DNA from: a virus
Lineage: Duplodnaviria; Heunggongvirae; Uroviricota; Caudoviricetes
Virus record (IMG/VR): IMGVR_UViG_3300028532_000009
Strand: one strand, 5' to 3'
Length of the DNA: 13,497 bases
The stretch's first letter is position 1. The number at the start of each line of letters is the position of its first letter. The translations under genes were made by a program, and so were the position numbers. The notes beneath the pieces were generated by a model. It did not search any database, had not been told where the DNA came from, and was given only the letters and a program-made list of their open reading frames with translations. Shown one piece after another: positions 3,750 to 13,497 of the stretch.

Positions 3750-5745
3750 AACTATTAAAGATTTCCTCGTCTCGCTTGGCTTCAGTGTGGATGATGCAGG
3801 AGCGAAAAAGTTCGGTTCTGTCCTCGCCGGTACAACTGCAAATGTCATCAAAATGGGGCTGGCCGTCGAAGGAACTGCACTGTCCGTGGTGGCCTTCACG
3901 GCTAAGATCGCCTCCGGTCTGGATAATCTTTACTGGGCGTCACAGCGCACCGGCGCGACGGTCCATGGAATTCAGTCTATTGGCTATGCGGTTTCGCAGG
4001 TTGGCGGCAGTGCAGACGCTGCGCGCGGGTCACTGGAGAGCCTTGCCCGTTTTATCCGTAATAGCCCCGGGGCTGAGGGATTTCTGAATCGCCTGGGCGT
4101 ACAGACCCGTGATGCCAGCGGTAACATGCGTGACATGGCTGCTATCTTTACGGGCGTTGGACAGAAACTCAGCAGCATGCCGTATTACCGGGCTAACCAG
4201 TATGCGCAGATGCTGGGCATTGACGAAAATACCCTGATGGCTATGCGTCGCGGAGTGGGGCAGTTCAGCGCTCAGTATTCAGAAATGGTGAAAGCGATCG
4301 GATTTAATGCCGATCAGGCTGCCTTATCGTCAAACCGGTTTATGACCTCGCTGAAATCGCTCGGTGAAATGGCCGGGATGGCGCGGGACAAAATCGGATC
4401 GAATCTTGCGGACGGACTGGCGGGGCAGATTGATAACCTGCGCAAAAAGATAATTGAAAATTTTCCCAAAATTGAAGTCACCATCACAAAGGTCATAAAA
4501 GGGATCCTCTGGCTGGGTGAGATAGTCGGGCGGGTTGCATTTCGGATAGTCGATGGTGTCGGAGATATCATCGAGTGGTGGGGAAAACTGGATGCCGAAA
4601 CGAAAACCCTGATAGAGGTTATCGGCGGCCTGGTTGTCGCCATGCGGATACTTAACTCTACTTTCTGGATGTCACCTATAGGGCTGATTACTGGTCTGAT
4701 CGTGGCTCTCGGTCTCTTGTGGGAAGACTACAAAACATGGAAAGAAGGCGGTAACAGCCTTATCGACTGGGAAAAATGGCAACCGGCAATAGATAAAGCG
4801 AAGGATGCGATCACCTGGTTCCGCGACAAATTACTCGAGCTGAAAGACAGCGTGGGGGGATGGCAAAAATCACTGGAAATCCTCGGTACATTCATCGCGG
4901 GTGTCTGGATATCCAAGGTTCTGGGGGCTTTCGGAAAAATATCAGGTTTGCCGGTCCCAGCCTGGCTTAAATTGTGGGCGCTTTACGCAGGTTATATTGT
5001 TAGTGACAGAGAAAATATTGCCGATAGCGCAAAATCTTCACTGAGGTATACGAAGCGAATTATCGGCGACACGCTGGCTGCTATTGGTATAAAAACAGAT
5101 ATCGGACGCAGGGATGTCAGTGAGGTCCGTGAATGGCCTGCGTGGATGGACTGGTTGCACGGGGGACCCGGTAAAGTTATCCGGCAGGGACAGAGTAACG
5201 GTGTAGTGCATGGCTCCAACGTCCAGCCCGACATCCCCGGCGGCGGTACTCTTGCTGATCGCAACAATAACCCCGGGAACATTCGCCCGGTGAGCGGTAA
5301 AGGGTTCCGGTTTTTCGAATCAGCTCTTGAGGGCTGGGAGGCGATGAAAAACCAGCTCATGCGTTACTTTACCGGGAAAACAACCGGACGAGCATTACAG
5401 ACTATTCAGGATATTGTCAGTACCTGGGCCCCGGCAGGTGATAACAACGATCCGAAAAAGTATGCACAGGATGTTGCGAAATGGATGGGAGTATCACCGA
5501 ATGCAATATTGAATCTTACAGATCCCCAGACTATGGGAGCATTGATGCAGTCGATGGCGCGCAAAGAAGGTTATTCAAACTGGAACAGCCCGCTGGCGTA
5601 TCAGGCCGCCGCTGGCAGCCTTAACCAGCAGACTGTTATAAATGTTCATGGAGTTAACAACCCTCAGGAGGCGGCTAATCTGATCGCTGACAAGCAGGGG
5701 GCTGTAAATGCCAGGGCGGTACAGCAATTGAAAGGACCTGCGTAA
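3739..5745 (+). CDS. Tail tape measure protein (668 aa)
   Basis: ATG 3739 preceded by GGAGAGAGG (3726-3734); the ORF-track start at 3718 is a TTG with no RBS. Largest gene in the cluster, located after the chaperone. Two long hydrophobic segments (about 4610-4725 and 4873-5010) and a hydrophilic C-terminal module. Confidence 0.85.
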   Translation: MNAETIKDFLVSLGFSVDDAGAKKFGSVLAGTTANVIKMGLAVEGTALSVVAFTAKIASGLDNLYWASQRTGATVHGIQSIGYAVSQVGGSADAARGSLESLARFIRNSPGAEGFLNRLGVQTRDASGNMRDMAAIFTGVGQKLSSMPYYRANQYAQMLGIDENTLMAMRRGVGQFSAQYSEMVKAIGFNADQAALSSNRFMTSLKSLGEMAGMARDKIGSNLADGLAGQIDNLRKKIIENFPKIEVTITKVIKGILWLGEIVGRVAFRIVDGVGDIIEWWGKLDAETKTLIEVIGGLVVAMRILNSTFWMSPIGLITGLIVALGLLWEDYKTWKEGGNSLIDWEKWQPAIDKAKDAITWFRDKLLELKDSVGGWQKSLEILGTFIAGVWISKVLGAFGKISGLPVPAWLKLWALYAGYIVSDRENIADSAKSSLRYTKRIIGDTLAAIGIKTDIGRRDVSEVREWPAWMDWLHGGPGKVIRQGQSNGVVHGSNVQPDIPGGGTLADRNNNPGNIRPVSGKGFRFFESALEGWEAMKNQLMRYFTGKTTGRALQTIQDIVSTWAPAGDNNDPKKYAQDVAKWMGVSPNAILNLTDPQTMGALMQSMARKEGYSNWNSPLAYQAAAGSLNQQTVINVHGVNNPQEAANLIADKQGAVNARAVQQLKGPA

Positions 5746-6395
5746 TGGACTTTTTATCTGTTTTACTGCAGCAGCAAACCCGCTCAATAGGAATCATTAT
5801 TCCTGATGTGGTTATTACCGAAAAGCACACTGACGCCCTGGAAATTACGGAACATCCGGTTGAACAGCCCACGAATGCTGGTGCCAGTGGTGAGGGCGCT
5901 GGTTATATATCAGAACACGCATTCAGGCGCCCTTCTGAGGTTGTGATGGAAACCGGTTTTTCCGGAGGCGGATCGCTGCTTGATTTTGCCAGTAACCTGA
6001 CGGCTACCAGTTTACTGGGGCTGAGCCCGAAAGAACTGTATCAGGAACTGCTTAACCTGCAGCGGAATCGTATTCCTTTCGATGTGACAACCGGCAAGCG
6101 TATTTACAACAATATGTTGATAAAAACGCTGGAGGTTACGACCGATAAGAGTAGTGAAAATGTGCTTCTGGCGACACTTACCCTCAGGGAAGTAATTATT
6201 ACCTCCACGCAGTCAGTCAGGGTTGCCCCGAAAAACAATATGACCGAGGGAGTCGGAACGTCTGCTGTGCAGAATACAGGCACCAAAACAACGGGGCTGC
6301 CGAATAATTCCATTCTGAAATCGCTGCCACAGATGGCGCAAGAAGGTATCTCCACTGTTGATGGGTATTTGAGCAATTTATTTCTGGGAAGGTGA
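5745..6395 (+). CDS. Post-tape-measure tail/baseplate protein (216 aa), function unassigned
   Basis: ATG 5745 overlaps the tape measure stop (TAATG), with AAAGGA upstream (5729-5734). The position corresponds to the distal tail or baseplate initiator of contractile tails. No diagnostic motif recognised. Confidence 0.55.
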   Translation: MDFLSVLLQQQTRSIGIIIPDVVITEKHTDALEITEHPVEQPTNAGASGEGAGYISEHAFRRPSEVVMETGFSGGGSLLDFASNLTATSLLGLSPKELYQELLNLQRNRIPFDVTTGKRIYNNMLIKTLEVTTDKSSENVLLATLTLREVIITSTQSVRVAPKNNMTEGVGTSAVQNTGTKTTGLPNNSILKSLPQMAQEGISTVDGYLSNLFLGR

Positions 6396-6703: not shown

Positions 6704-7735
6704 ATGTCGAAAAACTGGATGCGTCACTTTGAATTATTGCTTGTTGATGATAAGGGCGACGGGATAAAAATTTCTGAGCTTAAAGTCACTTTCAATATTC
6801 AGAAAATGCCTGCGACCATATTTAATGGATTCGTTGGAAATTTTAAGGTTTATAACCTGTCTCCTACCACTCAGAACCGGATTATGCAGAAGGAGTTTTC
6901 GCGTATACAGGTTATTGCCGGATACAAGGGGCAACCGGATGCAGCAGGTAATTATCCTGATGAAAACGTTGGTATGATATTCAATGGAGATATCCGTTTT
7001 ACTGTCACTGGTAAAGATAATGCCACAGACAGTTGGATCATGTTGCAGTGTATTGACAGCTGGGAAGGCCACCTGAACGCAAGTGTGAAAACCACAGTGG
7101 CATCTGGCTGGAAGTACAGAGATCTTTTCAGTCTGGGTATGAAATCATTCGAACCATATGGCATCGAATCCGGCGCAGTTCCTGACATGCCTGAAACGGT
7201 ATTTCCCCGGGGTCGCGTTGTTTATCAAAACACATCAAGGTTGATGAATCATATCGCAGGGCAGTGTAAGGCTAACTGGTGGTATGAAAATAATCTGGTA
7301 AATATTGTTCCTGAAGATAAATATATTGGTGTTGCTACGGTGTTGAATGCTAACACCGGGCTTATCGGTATGCCACAGCAGACGATGGGAGCTGGCGTAA
7401 ATGTCAGATGCCTGATTAATCCAAATATTAAGCTCGGTGGGCTTATTCGTCTGGATCAGGCATCTGTATACCGTGCCTCTTTGAGTAATGACCAGGTAGC
7501 GAAATCGCCAGCACGACTGGATGAGTCTGAAAGCGACGGTAATCTCTACGTTAACGGTCTGCCAGGCATGTCACAGCCTGCCAGCATTAATACTGACGGT
7601 GATTACATTGTGGGCAGCATTGATTATACTGGCGACACCCGAGGGCAGGCGTGGTATATGGACCTGCTTTGCCTGGCTAAAGGTGGCAAAGAATTGCTTA
7701 ACTCGAAAGGGATTGATGCGGCGAAATACACATGA
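6704..7735 (+). CDS. Baseplate hub-like protein (343 aa)
   Basis: ATG 6704 with GGAG (6695-6698) upstream. Size and position between tape measure and spike match a hub of the gpD/Mu-P/XkdQ class. Looks more AT-rich than flanking genes by eye. Assignment is by synteny. Confidence 0.55.
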   Translation: MSKNWMRHFELLLVDDKGDGIKISELKVTFNIQKMPATIFNGFVGNFKVYNLSPTTQNRIMQKEFSRIQVIAGYKGQPDAAGNYPDENVGMIFNGDIRFTVTGKDNATDSWIMLQCIDSWEGHLNASVKTTVASGWKYRDLFSLGMKSFEPYGIESGAVPDMPETVFPRGRVVYQNTSRLMNHIAGQCKANWWYENNLVNIVPEDKYIGVATVLNANTGLIGMPQQTMGAGVNVRCLINPNIKLGGLIRLDQASVYRASLSNDQVAKSPARLDESESDGNLYVNGLPGMSQPASINTDGDYIVGSIDYTGDTRGQAWYMDLLCLAKGGKELLNSKGIDAAKYT

Positions 7736-8067
7736 AAAGACCATTGTTGACAGTTTTACTTGTCTGTATCTCCTTCATTTCCTTTGCTGATACCGGTTGC
7801 GGACCATTTACGATCAACTGGAAAGCGCAAGACGGACTTGCAAGGATTAATGGACAGAAACCGGAGACACAGAAAATCATCTTTCTCAAACAGGAAGGTG
7901 ATTATGACAATGTGAACATCCAATGGATGATTCCGGGTAATGGGCGTTGGTTAGGGATGGATTTTGTGGCCAGAAATGGCAAGCCGATCCTCAACGTTGA
8001 AGTTATCCGCAAAAATATGGACGAGCCTCGGGAGTTCTGGACGTATGATTGCCGGAAGGTGAAGTGA
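7732..8067 (+). CDS. Small secreted protein of unknown function (111 aa) with N-terminal signal peptide; accessory (moron) gene
   Basis: ATG 7732 overlaps the hub stop (ATGA). N-terminus MKRPLLTVLLVCISFISFA followed by DTG is a typical Sec signal peptide with an AxA-like cleavage site. The mature part has two Cys, one near each end. The RBS is weak, so expression probably depends on coupling to the hub gene. Confidence 0.6.
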   Translation: MKRPLLTVLLVCISFISFADTGCGPFTINWKAQDGLARINGQKPETQKIIFLKQEGDYDNVNIQWMIPGNGRWLGMDFVARNGKPILNVEVIRKNMDEPREFWTYDCRKVK

Positions 8068-8142
8068 ATTACATTGGCGTCCAGCTTCTGCAGAACAGCA
8101 TGGATGCGCCGAAAATCATCGGTTCCTTTCCATGCAAAAAGA

Positions 8143-8170
8143 TTGTTGATTAATCACTCGTAATTATAAT
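8143..8170 (+). promoter_or_regulatory. Sigma70-like promoter for the small membrane-protein gene
   Basis: TTGTTG (8143-8148), 16-bp spacer, consensus TATAAT (8165-8170), about 37 nt upstream of ATG 8207. Short inverted repeat ATCAC (8153-8157) / GTGAT (8171-8175) brackets the -10 box and could be an operator. Confidence 0.5.
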
Positions 8171-8206
8171 GTGATACTTCTACTTTCACGATAAGGAATT
8201 TGTCAC

Positions 8207-8446
8207 ATGTTCGGATTTGATAAATTAATAACTCCAAAAATCATCAACGTTCTGTATGGCATCACAATGTTACTTCTGGTTGTTGCCGCCATTATAACGT
8301 TTGTTAATGGGAAGGCTGCTGGCGCTTTAGTGCTTTTGTTATGTGCTGTATTTTGCCGAATATTCTTTGAGTGCATCATGGTTTCATTTAAAAACAATGA
8401 GTATCTTCGCCGAATAGCTGAAGCGTTAGAAGCAAACAAGCAGTAA
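8207..8446 (+). CDS. Small two-helix inner-membrane protein (79 aa), possibly DUF4282-like; accessory (moron) gene
   Basis: ATG 8207 with AAGGA (8193-8197) upstream. Two hydrophobic helices (INVLYGITMLLLVVAAIITFV and ALVLLLCAVFCRIFFECIMVSF) and an amphipathic charged tail. The N-terminal FGFDKLITPKIINVLYGI motif matches my recollection of DUF4282 small membrane proteins (unverified). Has its own promoter and terminator and is AT-rich. Confidence 0.7.
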   Translation: MFGFDKLITPKIINVLYGITMLLLVVAAIITFVNGKAAGALVLLLCAVFCRIFFECIMVSFKNNEYLRRIAEALEANKQ

Positions 8447-8462
8447 TGAAACTTCAATAATG

Positions 8463-8487
8463 AACCCGCCACCCGGCGGGTTTTTTA
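8463..8487 (+). terminator. Rho-independent terminator
   Basis: GC stem CCCGCC (8465-8470) / GGCGGG (8475-8480) with 4-nt loop ACCC, followed by TTTTTT (8481-8486), 17 nt after the stop of the membrane-protein gene. Confidence 0.75.
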
Positions 8488-8505
8488 CTTTCTGGAGACA
8501 TATGA

Positions 8506-9258
8506 ATGCCCGTTTCTTTAAGCGCTCAACTTGGTAGCAAAGAACAGGCCGATGTAAGACTTGCTGGCTCTGTCATGTCGGCGCTGCGTGTTTCTATGCC
8601 CGGCATCGTCCAGTCATTTGATCCGGACACGGTAACAGTGGTTGTTCAACCTGCGATTAAAGGCTATGAGCCGGACTCAAATGGAATCAACCAGTCGACG
8701 ACATTACCCCTGCTGGTGGATGTACCAGTGGTATTCCCGCGCGGCGGAGGCTGTACGTTGACTTTTCCGGTAAAAGCCGGGGATGAGTGTCTTGTCGTTT
8801 TTGCCGATCGTTGTATTGATTTCTGGTGGCAGAGTGGCGGTGTGCAGGAGCCTGTCGACGACCGGGTGCATGATTTATCGGATGCTTTCTGTATCGTCGG
8901 GCCGCAGTCTCAGGCGAGGAAGATTAGCGGTATTAATACCAGTGCTACACAGTTGCGTAGTGACGACGGCAGCACCTATTTTGAGCTTAATCCTGATACC
9001 CGGAAAATTAAAATTGTCGCTCCGGGGGGGCTTGATGTGGTTGCCCCTCTGGCTGATTTTTCTGAGAAAGTAACCATTCATGGCCTGTTAACCTGGATGG
9101 GTGGCATGGTGGGGTCTGTTGTTTCTGGTGTGGCTTCAAAAATCACTGGTGCTGTTGAGTTTTTGGGTAGCGTGAAGGCTAACGGCAAGCCAATCGATGA
9201 TACGCACACTCATGGCGGTGTTCAGCGCGGTGGAAGCAATACCGATGGGGTAAACTGA
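8506..9258 (+). CDS. Baseplate central spike protein, gpV/Mu gp45-like (250 aa)
   Basis: ATG 8506 with TGGAGA (8493-8498) upstream. First gene after the terminator, so transcription resumes or reads through here. The N-terminal part and Gly-rich C-terminus (HTHGGVQRGGSNTDGVN) resemble spike proteins from memory. Position before wedge and J-like genes. Confidence 0.65.
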   Translation: MPVSLSAQLGSKEQADVRLAGSVMSALRVSMPGIVQSFDPDTVTVVVQPAIKGYEPDSNGINQSTTLPLLVDVPVVFPRGGGCTLTFPVKAGDECLVVFADRCIDFWWQSGGVQEPVDDRVHDLSDAFCIVGPQSQARKISGINTSATQLRSDDGSTYFELNPDTRKIKIVAPGGLDVVAPLADFSEKVTIHGLLTWMGGMVGSVVSGVASKITGAVEFLGSVKANGKPIDDTHTHGGVQRGGSNTDGVN

Positions 9259-9611: not shown

Positions 9612-10810
9612 TGGCTCTGAACCTTGATTCTCTCGGTTTATCTGCAAAGGTAACCGCGGAGGGGATCAGTGCGCCTGATTATCAGACGATACTCAGCACC
9701 CTGATTAGCTATTTTCAGCAGATTTATGGCAGTGATGCCTACCTCGAACCGGACAGCAAAGACGGCCAGATGGTGGCTCTGATGGCGCTGGCGATTCATG
9801 ATGCCAATAATATGGCGATAACTGTCTACAACTGTTTTTCACCAGCAACCAGCTATGGGGCTGCACTGACCAGTAACGTGAAAATAAATGGTATTTCACG
9901 TAAAGGCGCGACGAACTCTACGGTTGATTTGCTTCTTACAGGAACTGCCGGAACAACCATCATTAATGGCAGCGTGAAAGACAGTAATAATGTGATATGG
10001 CGTTTGCCTGCTTCAGTGGTGGTCGGCGTGGATGGTACAGTGATGGTGACCGCAACATGTTCCGTCAGTGGTGCAGTGGCGGCGCTGGCTGGAACTATCA
10101 CTGAAATTAATACGCCAACCCGTGGCTGGGTTTCGGTAACCAATCCTGCTGCGGCTACTGTGGGCACTCCGGCAGAAACTGATGCGGAGTTACGTATCCG
10201 ACAGTCGCAAAGTGTTGCGTTGCCATCAATAACCCCATTTGAAGCACTGAATGGTGCTGTTTCTAATGTTACCGGTGTAACCCGCCACAAACTCTATGAA
10301 AACGATAATGGTTCGGAGGACGGTAACGGGTTACCGCCACACTCTGTTGCTGTAATTGTGGATGGCGGTGATGTGACGGATATTGCTCAGGCTATCAGAG
10401 GGAATAAAGGCCAGGGGACAGCCACTCACGGTACAACATCCGTTACGGTTCCGGATAAATACGGCAATCCCCATGTAATCAAATTTTCGCGTTCCAGTGA
10501 TGTGCCTGTTTATGCCCGGATTAAATTAAAAGTTTTTACGGGTTATACCTCACAGATAGGGCAGCAGATCCAGCAGGCTATTTCCGACTATATCAATAGT
10601 CTGATGATTGGTGATTCGGTCCTTTTAAGTCGCATTTACTCACCGGCGAATCTTGGCGTGGTGAGTGGCGGGAATGCACGCTATTACGATATTCAGGAAC
10701 TGACGATTGGGAAATCCCCGGGGGCTTTGTCGTCATCAAACATTGATATCAGATACAACGAATCTGCGTCCTGTACCCCGGAAAATATCGTTATAACGGT
10801 GGAGTCATGA
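9611..10810 (+). CDS. Baseplate J-like protein (399 aa)
   Basis: ATG 9611 with GGAGG (9602-9606) upstream. Size and position (wedge, J-like, next baseplate protein, fibre) match P2 gpJ / Mu gp47 / XkdT-type proteins. Confidence 0.7.
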   Translation: MALNLDSLGLSAKVTAEGISAPDYQTILSTLISYFQQIYGSDAYLEPDSKDGQMVALMALAIHDANNMAITVYNCFSPATSYGAALTSNVKINGISRKGATNSTVDLLLTGTAGTTIINGSVKDSNNVIWRLPASVVVGVDGTVMVTATCSVSGAVAALAGTITEINTPTRGWVSVTNPAAATVGTPAETDAELRIRQSQSVALPSITPFEALNGAVSNVTGVTRHKLYENDNGSEDGNGLPPHSVAVIVDGGDVTDIAQAIRGNKGQGTATHGTTSVTVPDKYGNPHVIKFSRSSDVPVYARIKLKVFTGYTSQIGQQIQQAISDYINSLMIGDSVLLSRIYSPANLGVVSGGNARYYDIQELTIGKSPGALSSSNIDIRYNESASCTPENIVITVES

Positions 10811-11487
10811 GCAAATACACCGAACTAATCACGAACTACCACGCCACCAAACCTAAATTTCTTGCACATGTTGATCTGATGACCCGGCCGCTTATTGATG
10901 TTGCGGCTGCCACCAGAGGGCTGATTACTGCATTTGATATTGACTCTGCGGTTGGTGTGCAACTTGACATTCTGGGATTGTGGATCGGACGTAGCCGTGT
11001 TGTCAGCCAGCCTATTTCAGGTGTTTATTTCAGCTGGGATACCGACGGGCTTGGATATGATCAGGGTGTATGGCAGGGGCCATACGATCCTGATTCCGGA
11101 TACATGTACCTCAGCGATGAAACTTATCGTGTCATCCTTAAAGCGAAGATTGCGATTAATAACTGGGACGGACGGAATGATTCGCTTCCGGCAATTCTTG
11201 ACGCGGCAACAGCAGGATCCGGACTGCGAATGCAGATAGTCGATAACCAGGACATGACGATATCGGTCTGGGTCTTTCCTGATACTGATATTTCAGATGT
11301 ATCGCGTGAGTTAATTGCGGCAATTAAACAGGGGTATCTCACAGTAAAAGCCGCCGGGGTATGGGCGGGTGGCATTGAAACACCTTCGGTGGAAACCCCA
11401 TCGGAAGGCTCAAAATTTTTTGGTTTTGATATGGATAACGAATTCATCAGTGGTTTTGATGTAGGGGCATGGGGAGTATTACTCTGA
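10807..11487 (+). CDS. Baseplate/tail protein, Mu gp48 / YmfQ (DUF2313)-like (226 aa)
   Basis: ATG 10807 in ATGA overlap with the J-like gene. Lies immediately upstream of the tail fibre gene, as gp48/XkdU/YmfQ-type proteins do. Confidence 0.65.
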   Translation: MSKYTELITNYHATKPKFLAHVDLMTRPLIDVAAATRGLITAFDIDSAVGVQLDILGLWIGRSRVVSQPISGVYFSWDTDGLGYDQGVWQGPYDPDSGYMYLSDETYRVILKAKIAINNWDGRNDSLPAILDAATAGSGLRMQIVDNQDMTISVWVFPDTDISDVSRELIAAIKQGYLTVKAAGVWAGGIETPSVETPSEGSKFFGFDMDNEFISGFDVGAWGVLL

Positions 11488-12554
11488 TGGCAAAAAATGA
11501 CTTTAAAGCATTCGCAACGGGTAAAAATGCCAATGTTATGCCGCAGGAGGAATGGGAAGCGTTGCCTGCGCTTTTATCCGGATTTACAGCAGGGAAAGCA
11601 TCCAGTGCGCAGGTGAACAAAGCCATTCGACAGGCCAGCTTTATTACGGCAGCGCTTGCACAGTACACAGCTAATAAAAGTGGGCTGGATGTGCTTGATG
11701 ATGGTGACCTGAACGGGTTTATCTCCAAAATGGAAGCGGCTTTGGGGAAGGATTTCCAGGCGCTTGACGCCACGCTCACTGCACTGGCAGGCCTTGCCAC
11801 TGCGGCAGACAAACTACCGTATTTTACGGGGAATGATACAGCCAGCCTGACAACCCTGACTAATGTTGGACGGGATATTCTGGCTAAAACAAGCAAACAG
11901 GAGGTTATTCATTATCTTGGTTTGGGAGCTACAAACGGATACGTGGGACGCTTGGTGAATACCCGGGTTTTCACGTCATCAGGTACGTACACCCCGACGC
12001 CAGGAACAAAACGGATCAGGGTCACAATAACGGGCGGCGGTGGCGGAGGGGGCGGCTGCAAGGCTATATCCAATAATGAAACGTTTTTCGGTGCTGGCGG
12101 TGGGGCCGGTGGAACAATAATGTCAATAATGACCCCGACACAGAATAGTTATCCAGTCACTATCGGCGCAGGTGGGGCCGGTGGTGTTAGTGCGACTTAC
12201 GGCATCAATGGCGGTAATAGCTTATTCGCATCGTTAATTGCTCCTGGTGGCGCAGGCGGCGGAAAATCAGGAGTCACAAACACAAACGGTGGTAACGGAG
12301 GTGTGCCGAGTACTGGCGATATAAACATCATTGGTGGATGTGGAGGCGACGGTCAGTCCGGAAATATCGGCGTTAGCGGTGAAGGCGGAACATCGTACTG
12401 GGGTGGCGGTGGACGCGCAGGCGCTGGCGGTGGTGTTAGCGGCAAGGCATATGGTTCAGGTGGCGGTGGTGCATACGATGCCGGTTATAGCGGAACCAGT
12501 ATGACGGGCGGGAAAGGCGCTGCAGGGATTTGTATTATCGAGGAGTTTGCATAA
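11487..12554 (+). CDS. Tail fibre protein (355 aa) with glycine-rich C-terminal receptor-binding region
   Basis: ATG 11487 overlaps the previous stop (TGATG) with GGGGAG (11471-11476) upstream; an in-frame ATG at 11469 is an alternative start. N-terminal fibre-like region followed by a C-terminal half dominated by poly-Gly motifs. Followed directly by a tail fibre assembly gene. Confidence 0.75.
   Translation: MAKNDFKAFATGKNANVMPQEEWEALPALLSGFTAGKASSAQVNKAIRQASFITAALAQYTANKSGLDVLDDGDLNGFISKMEAALGKDFQALDATLTALAGLATAADKLPYFTGNDTASLTTLTNVGRDILAKTSKQEVIHYLGLGATNGYVGRLVNTRVFTSSGTYTPTPGTKRIRVTITGGGGGGGGCKAISNNETFFGAGGGAGGTIMSIMTPTQNSYPVTIGAGGAGGVSATYGINGGNSLFASLIAPGGAGGGKSGVTNTNGGNGGVPSTGDINIIGGCGGDGQSGNIGVSGEGGTSYWGGGGRAGAGGGVSGKAYGSGGGGAYDAGYSGTSMTGGKGAAGICIIEEFA
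12033..12056 (+). repeat. (GGN)8 codon tract encoding eight consecutive glycines
   Basis: ggc ggc ggt ggc gga ggg ggc ggc read directly in the fibre frame. Further GGN-rich runs follow through ~12500. Confidence 0.85.
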
Positions 12555-12964
12555 TGAATACGTCATATGCAGTTATTGAAAATGGGATGGTTGTGAATGT
12601 CATTGTCTGGGATGGCGAGGCTGAATTCACAGTGCCGGATAATCAGCAGCTCATTGATATTTCTGATATCAGTGAGCATCCCGGAATCGGCTGGGGGTAT
12701 TCAGACGGGGTATTTACTGCGCCGCTCCCTCCGGAACGTTCTCATGATGAACTGGTAGCTGACGCTGAACAGAAAAAACAGTCGCTGACAGACGCAGCAA
12801 TGGCTAATATCAGCGTGATTCAGTTAAAGCTGCAGGCCGGGCGCAAACTGACGCAAGAAGAAACTACCCGACTTAACGTTGTGCTGGATTATATCGACGC
12901 TGTGACGGCAACAGATACCAGCACCGCACCGGATGTCATCTGGCCTGAACTGCCGGAGGCGTAG
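12554..12964 (+). CDS. tfa: Tail fibre assembly chaperone (136 aa)
   Basis: ATG 12554 overlaps the fibre stop (TAATG) with GAGGAG (12540-12545) upstream. C-terminus LDYIDAVTATDTSTAPDVIWPELPEA matches the conserved Tfa C-terminal motif (lambda Tfa ends ...RVDTSTAPDIEWPAVP..., recalled from memory). Confidence 0.8.
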   Translation: MNTSYAVIENGMVVNVIVWDGEAEFTVPDNQQLIDISDISEHPGIGWGYSDGVFTAPLPPERSHDELVADAEQKKQSLTDAAMANISVIQLKLQAGRKLTQEETTRLNVVLDYIDAVTATDTSTAPDVIWPELPEA

Positions 12965-13043
12965 GCCATTCAATATCTGGCGCACCGGAAGTATCGACCA
13001 GTTCCAGTGCGTCCAGATAATCCAGCCACAAATTATATTGCAT
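12936..13043 (-). pseudogene. C-terminal fragment of a second, convergent tail fibre assembly gene (tfa-prime remnant)
   Basis: Minus-strand translation gives ...EELLMQYNLWLDYLDALELVDTSGAPDIEWPTPPAVQAR-stop (stop at 12936-12938). This parallels the plus-strand Tfa C-terminus motif for motif (LDY-DA...DTS-APD-WP). Only ~35 codons remain, with no N-terminal domain and no RBS. Confidence 0.6.
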
Positions 13044-13129
13044 CAGGAGTTCCTCGCCAGAAGGTGGCGATCATTTATGATGTTGGCGTATCGACTTTGT
13101 ATAAGAAGTTTCCGGTCGGAGATAAATGA
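13028..13129 (+). pseudogene. C-terminal remnant of a Pin/Gin-family serine DNA invertase (HTH tail only)
   Basis: Plus-strand frame encodes ...NYIASGVPRQKVAIIYDVGVSTLYKKFPVGDK-stop (TGA 13127-13129). This closely matches the C-terminal HTH of the e14 Pin invertase as I recall it (...IAAGTPRQKVAIIYDVGVSTLYKRFPAGDK). Upstream in the same frame the sequence is unrelated, and no other frame encodes the catalytic domain. Confidence 0.65.
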
Positions 13130-13497
13130 AACCGTAGCACGTCGTATGCAAGAACGTGCCACGGCTGGCTGATGGACGTTCGATAGCGCGAGTTTGAATG
13201 AAAATCAGCCGGAGGTGATTTTACATAATTGTTGCGGAATCATTCAATATAGGGATTGCTTATTTCTGCCTGGATTGGTCTGAAATAGTCCCGAAATTTT
13301 CTCTAAAAAACTCGAAAAAAATGGTAACTAATTGAATGCATTAATATGCAATGGTACGTGTTTGGGATTAAAAGATGAGCGTAATTTTGCTTAACAAATT
13401 AATTTAAAAAGGGTTTCTTGTTTGTTGACGAAAACAGGAATCGTGTTCGGTCTCTTTTTATCTGTTAAAAGCCAGAAGCATTTCCTTCGCTGACTTT

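Follow-up and report, generated by a model that had tools for sequence, protein, structure and literature searches.

Organization of the right end of the prophage

The window (the whole stretch of DNA analyzed, 13,497 nt) was 100% identical to a stretch of the chromosome of Escherichia coli strain R1 (NZ_CP031706.1). After further long open reading frames (ORFs), it contained prophage tail and baseplate genes, encoding a spike, baseplate J/gp47, and a DUF2612 protein. The gene remnants described here, which we term the scar, are located at the right end of this contractile-tailed R1 prophage. They adjoin a tail fiber gene and the gene of its assembly chaperone (tfa) and consist of the 3′ end of a second, convergent tfa gene (tfa′) and the 3′ end of a pin-type DNA invertase gene (Table 1).

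Table 1. Coordinates of genes, remnants, and sites at the right end of the prophage (window positions)
Feature	Position	Strand	Description
Tail fiber gene	11469..12554	+	361 aa; N-terminal constant part and glycine-rich variable tip; from the ORF listing
Degenerate left crossover site, pixL position	11905..11930	.	TTATTCATTATC TT GGTTTGGGAGCT; inside the fiber gene
tfa, tail fiber assembly chaperone	12554..12964	+	136 aa from an ATG overlapping the fiber stop codon (TAATG)
tfa/tfa′ convergent 3′-end overlap	12936..12964	.	29 nt
tfa′ remnant	12936..13042	-	Last 34 codons and stop of a TfaP/YfdK-type gene (146 aa at full length); pseudogene
Deletion junction	13037..13042	.	ATTGCA microhomology common to antisense tfa′ and pin codons I155-A156
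pin remnant	13037..13129	+	Last 30 codons and stop of an invertase gene (serine DNA invertase, Pin/Gin family); the C-terminal helix-turn-helix is kept only in part; pseudogene
Conserved non-coding stretch 3′ of pin	13130..13224	.	Travels with the scar in all five carriers; hairpin at 13132-13164

Residues 170-358 of the fiber protein matched Pfam Gly_rich_2 (E = 2.6 × 10−13), and PGAP labels it 'glycine-rich domain-containing protein'. It belongs to the sole remaining fiber cassette, which is complete with its tfa and spans 11917-12964. The plus-strand Tfa matched Pfam Caudo_TAP (PF02413; E = 8.5 × 10−21, 74.9 bits) over profile positions 25-131. The 3′ half of tfaE from K-12 had ~88% identity to window positions 12779-12964, and by its sequence the C-terminal half of this Tfa can be assigned to the e14 TfaE type. 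PGAP marks the gene as a pseudogene ('missing N-terminus') starting at 12614. A 91%-identical tfa is annotated as intact in strain 14EC029 (126 aa). The pseudogene label probably arose artificially, the gene having been compared with Tfa proteins of greater length (~200 aa).

The minus-strand frame is the end of a second tfa gene

The minus-strand ORF (12936..13043) encodes a peptide of 35 aa (MQYNLWLDYLDALELVDTSGAPDIEWPTPPAVQAR). A preliminary description of the locus, made from the sequence only, had proposed that this frame and the end of the plus-strand tfa encode the same conserved C-terminal motif and that their 3′ ends overlap by ~29 nt (12936-12964). Both proposals were borne out: pairwise alignment yielded the common motif LDY(I/L)DA..(4)..DTS.APD(V/I).WP..P, both products matched Caudo_TAP, and the two ORFs end at 12964 (plus strand) and 12936 (minus strand). 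The peptide exceeded the cut-off of this profile (E = 3.5 × 10−9, 37.3 bits; cut-off 22.1), so that its proposed kinship with the Tfa family withstood the profile search, and it covered only positions 101-131 of 131, i.e. the C-terminal end.

The last 34 residues of the peptide were identical, at 34 of 34 positions, to the C-terminal residues of Tfa′ (Tfa2) of phage vB_EcoM-611R5 (ON470588; hereafter 611R5), a full-length protein of 146 aa, and near-identical to those of the tfa′ product in the prophage of E. coli EC20-4B-2. Nucleotide homology to intact tfa′ genes ends at 13041/13042. PGAP gives the full-length homologue of the stub the K-12 name yfdK, and the RefSeq PGAP annotation already labels the stub a pseudogene ('incomplete; missing N-terminus'). 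Since tfa′ is full length (137-146 aa) in the intact relatives, the 34-codon piece reflects truncation rather than the native end of a gene, which agrees with the earlier view that only the last ~35 codons of the second tfa survive. The second fiber gene, also thought to be lost, is indeed gone: there is no second tip in the window.

Positions 12870-13060 had also been described as an imperfect inverted repeat. What stands of this is the protein-level motif together with one DNA patch of ~18-23 nt; at the DNA level the similarity is otherwise weak. The arms (12866-12964 and 13043-12945) were 53.5% identical over 99 nt without gaps, and the longest exact inverted run was 10 nt. The only patch above shuffled controls was 12883-12900/13009-13026, with a local score of 15 (shuffles: mean 7.6, sd 1.2, maximum 14). 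The resemblance described as an 'inverted repeat' is chiefly one between proteins. Tfa proteins are modular, with a variable N-terminal fiber-binding domain and a conserved C-terminal oligomerisation domain, as stated in a passage of PMC9608196 that cites North et al. 2019; this explains why the likeness of the two tfa genes is confined to their C-terminal ends.

Intact relatives and other decay states of the segment

In intact relatives, the genes are arranged as fiber-tfa → ← tfa′-fiber′ → invertase, with a 29-nt tfa/tfa′ overlap. This overlap was found in e14 tfaP/tfaE, CPS-53 tfaS/yfdK, EC20-4B-2, and phage 611R5. The individual orders were (i) stfP-tfaP → ← tfaE-stfE → pinE in K-12 e14; (ii) stfP(constant)/glycine-rich tip/tfa → ← tfa′ (146 aa)/gp53-like tip → pin in EC20-4B-2; and (iii) fiber-tfa → ← tfa′ (146 aa)/fiber fragment → invertase in 611R5.

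The P segment of e14 comprises 1,797 bp with TTGGTTTGGGAGAAGG inverted repeats at its flanks and is inverted by PinE, PinQ, and PinR (PMC12529663). Window positions 12779-13046 matched e14 4703-4436 in inverted orientation with 87.7% nucleotide identity. This match, and the same layout in e14, EC20-4B-2, and 611R5, confirmed the earlier placement of the locus in the middle of an e14 P-type invertible segment. Because the match is inverted, the C-terminal half of the plus-strand Tfa belongs to the TfaE type and the stub to the TfaP type, i.e. the ancestor was flipped relative to K-12. Compared with e14, the window lacks pixR, half of pixL, the second fiber tip, 112 of the 146 tfa′ codons, and 154 of the 184 pin codons; it differs further in having another, glycine-rich first tip and another phage backbone (baseplate J/DUF2612 type).

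A direct precedent exists in K-12 itself. In the cryptic prophage CPS-53, tfaS and yfdK also converge with a 29-nt overlap and one partner is a truncated pseudogene, although the truncated partner is the other one, ~100 codons of it are kept, and it is not fused to an invertase stub.

Phage 611R5 resembles the window in its gene order (baseplate J, a 681-nt gene in the place of DUF2612, then the fiber gene); 689R2, a near-identical record to 611R5, displayed 98% identity over window positions 10800-11487. In both 611R5 and EC20-4B-2, the 3′ end of tfa′ is identical or near-identical to the stub, but the N-terminal part of tfa′, pixR, and the second fiber tip are retained, and pin is damaged at its C-terminal end, opposite to the damage in the window. 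The second tip is a 130-aa gp53-like ORF in EC20-4B-2, whereas the 611R5 annotation of that strand offers no more than a 55-aa ORF, named 'tail fiber protein'.

In the G segment of phage Mu and the C segment of P1, a serine invertase (Gin and Cin, respectively) swaps two convergent cassettes of fiber tip and Tfa (S/U vs. S′/U′). The likeness of the window to these segments lies in the design principle, as generally known for Mu and P1; it differs from them in being a copy of the e14 type that has decayed and no longer works as a switch.

Damaged segments of other kinds were also seen. In 611R5 (7915-9079) and 14EC029 (6793-7957), a C-terminally shortened invertase is followed by an 846-nt minus-strand ORF. 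As the invertase is shortened at its C-terminal end within the phage family of the window, the switch has been disabled independently and in several ways in one lineage. Strain 14EC029 was considered as a direct ancestor with the same fiber and rejected: the N-terminal part of its fiber is 100% identical, but the downstream region is different and also decayed.

In the e14-like prophages of many strains (e.g. E. coli 123636, 4537-5787), a minus-strand clpP-family protease gene is located between two damaged genes, a frameshifted tfa′ stub on one side and an N-terminally truncated pin on the other. This decay state of the switch differs from that in the window and is far commoner. Derivation of the window from such clpP-containing elements was rejected, as their tfa′ allele differs right up to the junction.

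A pin remnant abuts the tfa′ stub

The preliminary description had missed a second remnant (13037-13129), which abuts the tfa′ fragment. Its product, IASGVPRQKVAIIYDVGVSTLYKKFPVGDK, aligned with residues 155-184 of K-12 PinE and matched Pfam HTH_7 (PF02796; E = 5.1 × 10−7, 30.2 bits; cut-off 23.8) over profile positions 19-43 of 45. The N-terminal resolvase catalytic domain is absent; the stub is a fragment of this family and not a functional member. PGAP annotates it as an incomplete pseudogene ('HTH domain-containing protein, missing N-terminus'). At the nucleotide level, the stub was 92% identical to pin of strain 123636, compared with 85% to K-12 pinE (84.8% for window positions 13032-13130 against e14 pinE 6144-6241).

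A three-way comparison located the junction between the two stubs. Here, the tfa′ string is ATTATATTGCACCAG followed, after a gap of three positions, by TTCCTCACC, that of pin is GATTAATTGCATCAGGAGTTCCTCGCC, and that of the window is ATTATATTGCATCAGGAGTTCCTCGCC. In the corresponding longer strings, 611R5 tfa′ reads ...AAATTATATTGCACCAG, again a gap of three positions, and TTCCTCACC..., pin of strain 123636 reads ...CGATTAATTGCATCAGGAGTTCCTCGCC..., and the window reads ...AAATTATATTGCATCAGGAGTTCCTCGCC.... The change from tfa′-specific to pin-specific bases falls inside ATTGCA, to which the comparison with intact elements thus mapped the deletion endpoints. As the tfa′ stub is fused directly to the end of pin, the event was a deletion with one endpoint within tfa′ and the other within pin.

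The missing interval amounts to ~1.23-1.24 kb, as calculated from 611R5 or EC20-4B-2 coordinates together with full-length pinE. It contains tfa′ codons 1-112, the second fiber tip, pixR, the tfa′-pin intergenic region, and pin codons 1-154. None of the relatives recovered had both a tfa′ of the 611R5 type and a full-length pin, and pin itself is C-terminally truncated in 611R5, 14EC029, and EC20-4B-2. The single-step deletion and its size were, for this reason, reconstructed from composite comparators. A single microhomology-mediated deletion of ~1.23 kb most simply explains the arrangement and is its most parsimonious history; we infer both the single step and the illegitimate mechanism from the junction.

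At 13037-13058, antisense tfa′ (ATTGCACCAG, a gap of three positions, and TTCCTCACC) and pin (ATTGCATCAGGAGTTCCTCGCC) display a chance, imperfect similarity of ~22 nt, and this patch probably guided the deletion. It also accounts for the extension of the tfa′ pseudogene by PGAP as far as 13058, where GEELLM, encoded antisense to pin, mimics GEELVQ. For annotation, this extension represents chance similarity within pin sequence, and the two short ORFs are to be regarded as pseudogene fragments of what was most simply a single event.

Crossover sites and state of the switch

Both crossover sites are present in e14, 611R5, and EC20-4B-2, with CTCTCGAAAACCTTGGTTTGGGAGAA or a close variant of it as pixL and TTCTCCCAAACCAACGTTTATGAAAA as pixR, in agreement with the published e14 inverted repeats. 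Intact pixL in these three elements has the form CTCT(C/T)(G/C)AAAACCTTGGTTTGGGAGA(A/T). At the pixL position of the window, 10 of 12 positions of the variable-side half-site are kept, while the constant-side half-site matches at 5 of 12. In the alignment, homology to e14-type segments begins at the crossover core, CTTGGTTTGGGAG. The left site is degenerate because the constant part of the fiber was exchanged exactly at this core. Further searches of the window for the pix 26-mer of e14/611R5 (up to 7 mismatches) and for the AAACC-NN-GGTTT core (up to 2 mismatches) returned chance-level matches only, and the published 16-nt e14 inverted repeat (up to 3 mismatches) was not found in it.

The fiber gene is accordingly a hybrid, joined exactly at the former left crossover core (11905-11930), with a constant side unrelated to the e14 type. 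At the LGLG-coding site, the constant part was swapped either by site-specific recombination or by recombination through short homology.

A working switch of this type has two inverted crossover sites of ~26 bp, an adjacent intact serine invertase (about 184 aa, with an N-terminal catalytic domain), and two convergent cassettes of fiber tip and tfa. The window has no such pair of sites, codons 155-184 only of the invertase, and 34 tfa′ codons in place of the second cassette. Its descent from such a switch is evident from the homology to the center of the P segment, including the 29-nt overlap, next to homology to pin. As site pair, invertase, and second cassette are all missing, the locus cannot invert in cis, and without a site pair it cannot be inverted in trans by PinQ, PinR, or PinE either. 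The phage is fixed on the glycine-rich fiber and its cognate Tfa, and the switch is dead. The locus therefore stands outside the trans-acting Pin inversion (PinQ, PinR, or PinE on e14) recently linked to phage defence.

Efficient RecA-dependent exchange generally needs roughly 20-30 bp of identity. With a longest exact inverted match of 10 nt, further rearrangement through the residual inverted similarity is unlikely. The earlier idea that the remaining inverted homology might still give rise to rearrangements was not upheld, as neither a complete pix site nor an invertase is available.

Distribution of the scar

The identical junction was detected in 3 of 5,426 complete E. coli genomes. The scar adjoins ryeA/sdsR-pphA in R1 and ybhB/bioA in Br_190_kylling, whose fiber is the same as that of R1; in EcE.CRE.COL it is located at argW/intS, together with a different fiber and a 201-aa Tfa. 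Two IMG/VR contigs also carry the junction, with yet other fiber/tfa modules. No match to the junction was obtained in the GTDB species-representative genomes. The junction was not found in INPHARED phage records either: no match there reached even 80% coverage of window positions 10800-13200, and among the matches listed none extends past query position 2247 (window position 13046).

In the five carriers, the scar block (~12900-13170) was about 98-99% identical, whereas their flanks were only 67-89% identical and their upstream tfa, fiber, and tail genes only 67-91%. Since the block is uniform and the upstream modules are divergent, the conserved 3′ end of tfa represents a mosaic boundary for the exchange of fiber modules. 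The same junction at three different chromosomal sites and with different fibers indicates one ancestral event. Taken together, the sequences point to one ancestral deletion whose scar reached different fiber modules when recombination took place through the conserved 3′ end of tfa; such a scar can enter different fiber and phage backgrounds in this way. The identity within the block could be read as conservation, and recent spread by recombination could explain it equally well.

The near-identical block (~330 bp) spans up to ~12900-13224. Within it, the conserved YNLWLDY motif of the tfa′ stub has S in place of L in three of the five carriers, and the pin stub has undergone Q→L and P→L substitutions. 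Non-synonymous changes in both stubs are as would be expected of neutral decay.

Proposed history and alternative explanations

The locus is very probably a non-functional deletion scar in a former e14 P-type (Din-family, Mu G-like) invertible tail-fiber segment. The ancestor would have contained a constant fiber part, pixL, a glycine-rich tip with its Tfa, a convergent TfaP/YfdK-type Tfa with a second tip, pixR, and pin. Inversion by Pin between pixL and pixR would have swapped the tip-plus-chaperone cassette on the constant fiber part and switched the host range. A deletion of ~1.23 kb between ATTGCA direct microhomologies in tfa′ and in pin codons 155-156 would then have eliminated tfa′ codons 1-112, the alternative fiber tip, pixR, the pin promoter, and codons 1-154 of Pin, leaving 34 tfa′ codons fused to 30 pin codons. 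With the constant part of the fiber exchanged at the crossover core and the left site degenerate, inversion would be possible neither in cis nor by the invertases of other prophages. The locus would thus represent one more decay route of host-range inversion switches, in which a microhomology deletion leaves a tfa′ stub and a pin stub and fixes a single receptor-binding tip. The feature itself is ordinary, already known (both stubs are pseudogenes in public RefSeq annotation), and of low interest.

Alternatively, the segment may have decayed in several steps, e.g. if sequence between tfa′ and pin was first inserted or replaced, as in the e14-like prophages with clpP, and was lost later. The occurrence of relatives in several independent decay states (tfa′ stub-clpP-truncated pin; C-terminally cut pin) speaks for such a course, as does the pin stub, which is closest to pin of the clpP-type elements (92% vs. 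85% for K-12 pinE). However, up to the junction the tfa′ stub is the 611R5/EC20-4B-2 allele (AAATTATATTGCA), whereas the clpP-type allele reads AGATTAAACTGCA and runs on ~30 nt further. The clean 6-nt microhomology, free of filler DNA, likewise makes one event the most parsimonious solution, and we consider a multi-step origin unlikely.

Still less probable, to a degree that we regard as very low, is that the minus-strand ORF is a genuine small gene, whose 35-aa product would act as a Tfa C-terminal decoy against the Tfa-dependent fiber assembly of superinfecting phages. An in-frame ATG (13043-13041) preceded at 7 nt by a Shine-Dalgarno-like GAGGA was created at the junction, the ORF and its ATG are kept in five of five carriers, and the conserved Tfa C-terminal domain is described as the oligomerisation/assembly module (the same passage of PMC9608196, citing North et al. 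2019). Yet the ATG and the Shine-Dalgarno-like element arose incidentally from pin sequence adjoining the junction, and the peptide spans only positions 101-131 of Caudo_TAP. No promoter-like site is suitably placed, the one on the minus strand being ~175 nt upstream, and the L→S change affects the conserved YNLWLDY in three of five carriers. Moreover, over-production of full-length TfaP and TfaE gave no protection from T2 (PMC12529663). Equally slight is the chance that either the 35-aa ORF is expressed and its product, as a free copy of the end of the conserved Tfa domain, poisons the fiber assembly of superinfecting Tfa-dependent phages, or the scar block is kept and passed on between divergent phages since a locked fiber is advantageous.

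That the stub is simply the native end of the phage gene set or an assembly artefact, with nothing truncated, is hardly conceivable: apart from the closeness of the fragment to the prophage end nothing favors it, and it conflicts with the full-length homologues at the same position in related elements, the identical junction in five independent assemblies, and the match to Caudo_TAP over the C-terminal 31 profile positions only.

Residual signals and the prophage end

Returning to the deletion scar, it appears to be without residual function. The counts of promoter-like and terminator-like sites in the stub region were not above shuffled expectation, and the hairpin after the pin stop codon (13132-13164) was unremarkable (fold z = −0.54). 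In the Rfam search for sRNAs, the sole match in the stub region was a sub-threshold, partial one to CssrB (31.7 bits vs. a gathering score of 76).

CssrB is a chromosomal sRNA of Shigella. The match (13107-13163) covered the 3′ hairpin of the model only, which corresponds to the hairpin after the pin stop codon. Possibly, CssrB is derived from the 3′ end of a pin-like gene.

The prophage ends at the ryeA/sdsR small-RNA locus (window positions 13225-13497), with chromosomal homology starting at 13429. Positions 13429-13497 were 98.6% identical to K-12 ryeA/sdsR and cover only the last ~31 nt of sdsR. The phage-borne DNA upstream gave two sub-threshold Rfam matches, one to SdsR_RyeB (13378-13459, 23.4 bits; cut-off 38) and a second to SraC_RyeA. 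These matches suggest that a chimeric, partly reconstituted sRNA is present at attR.
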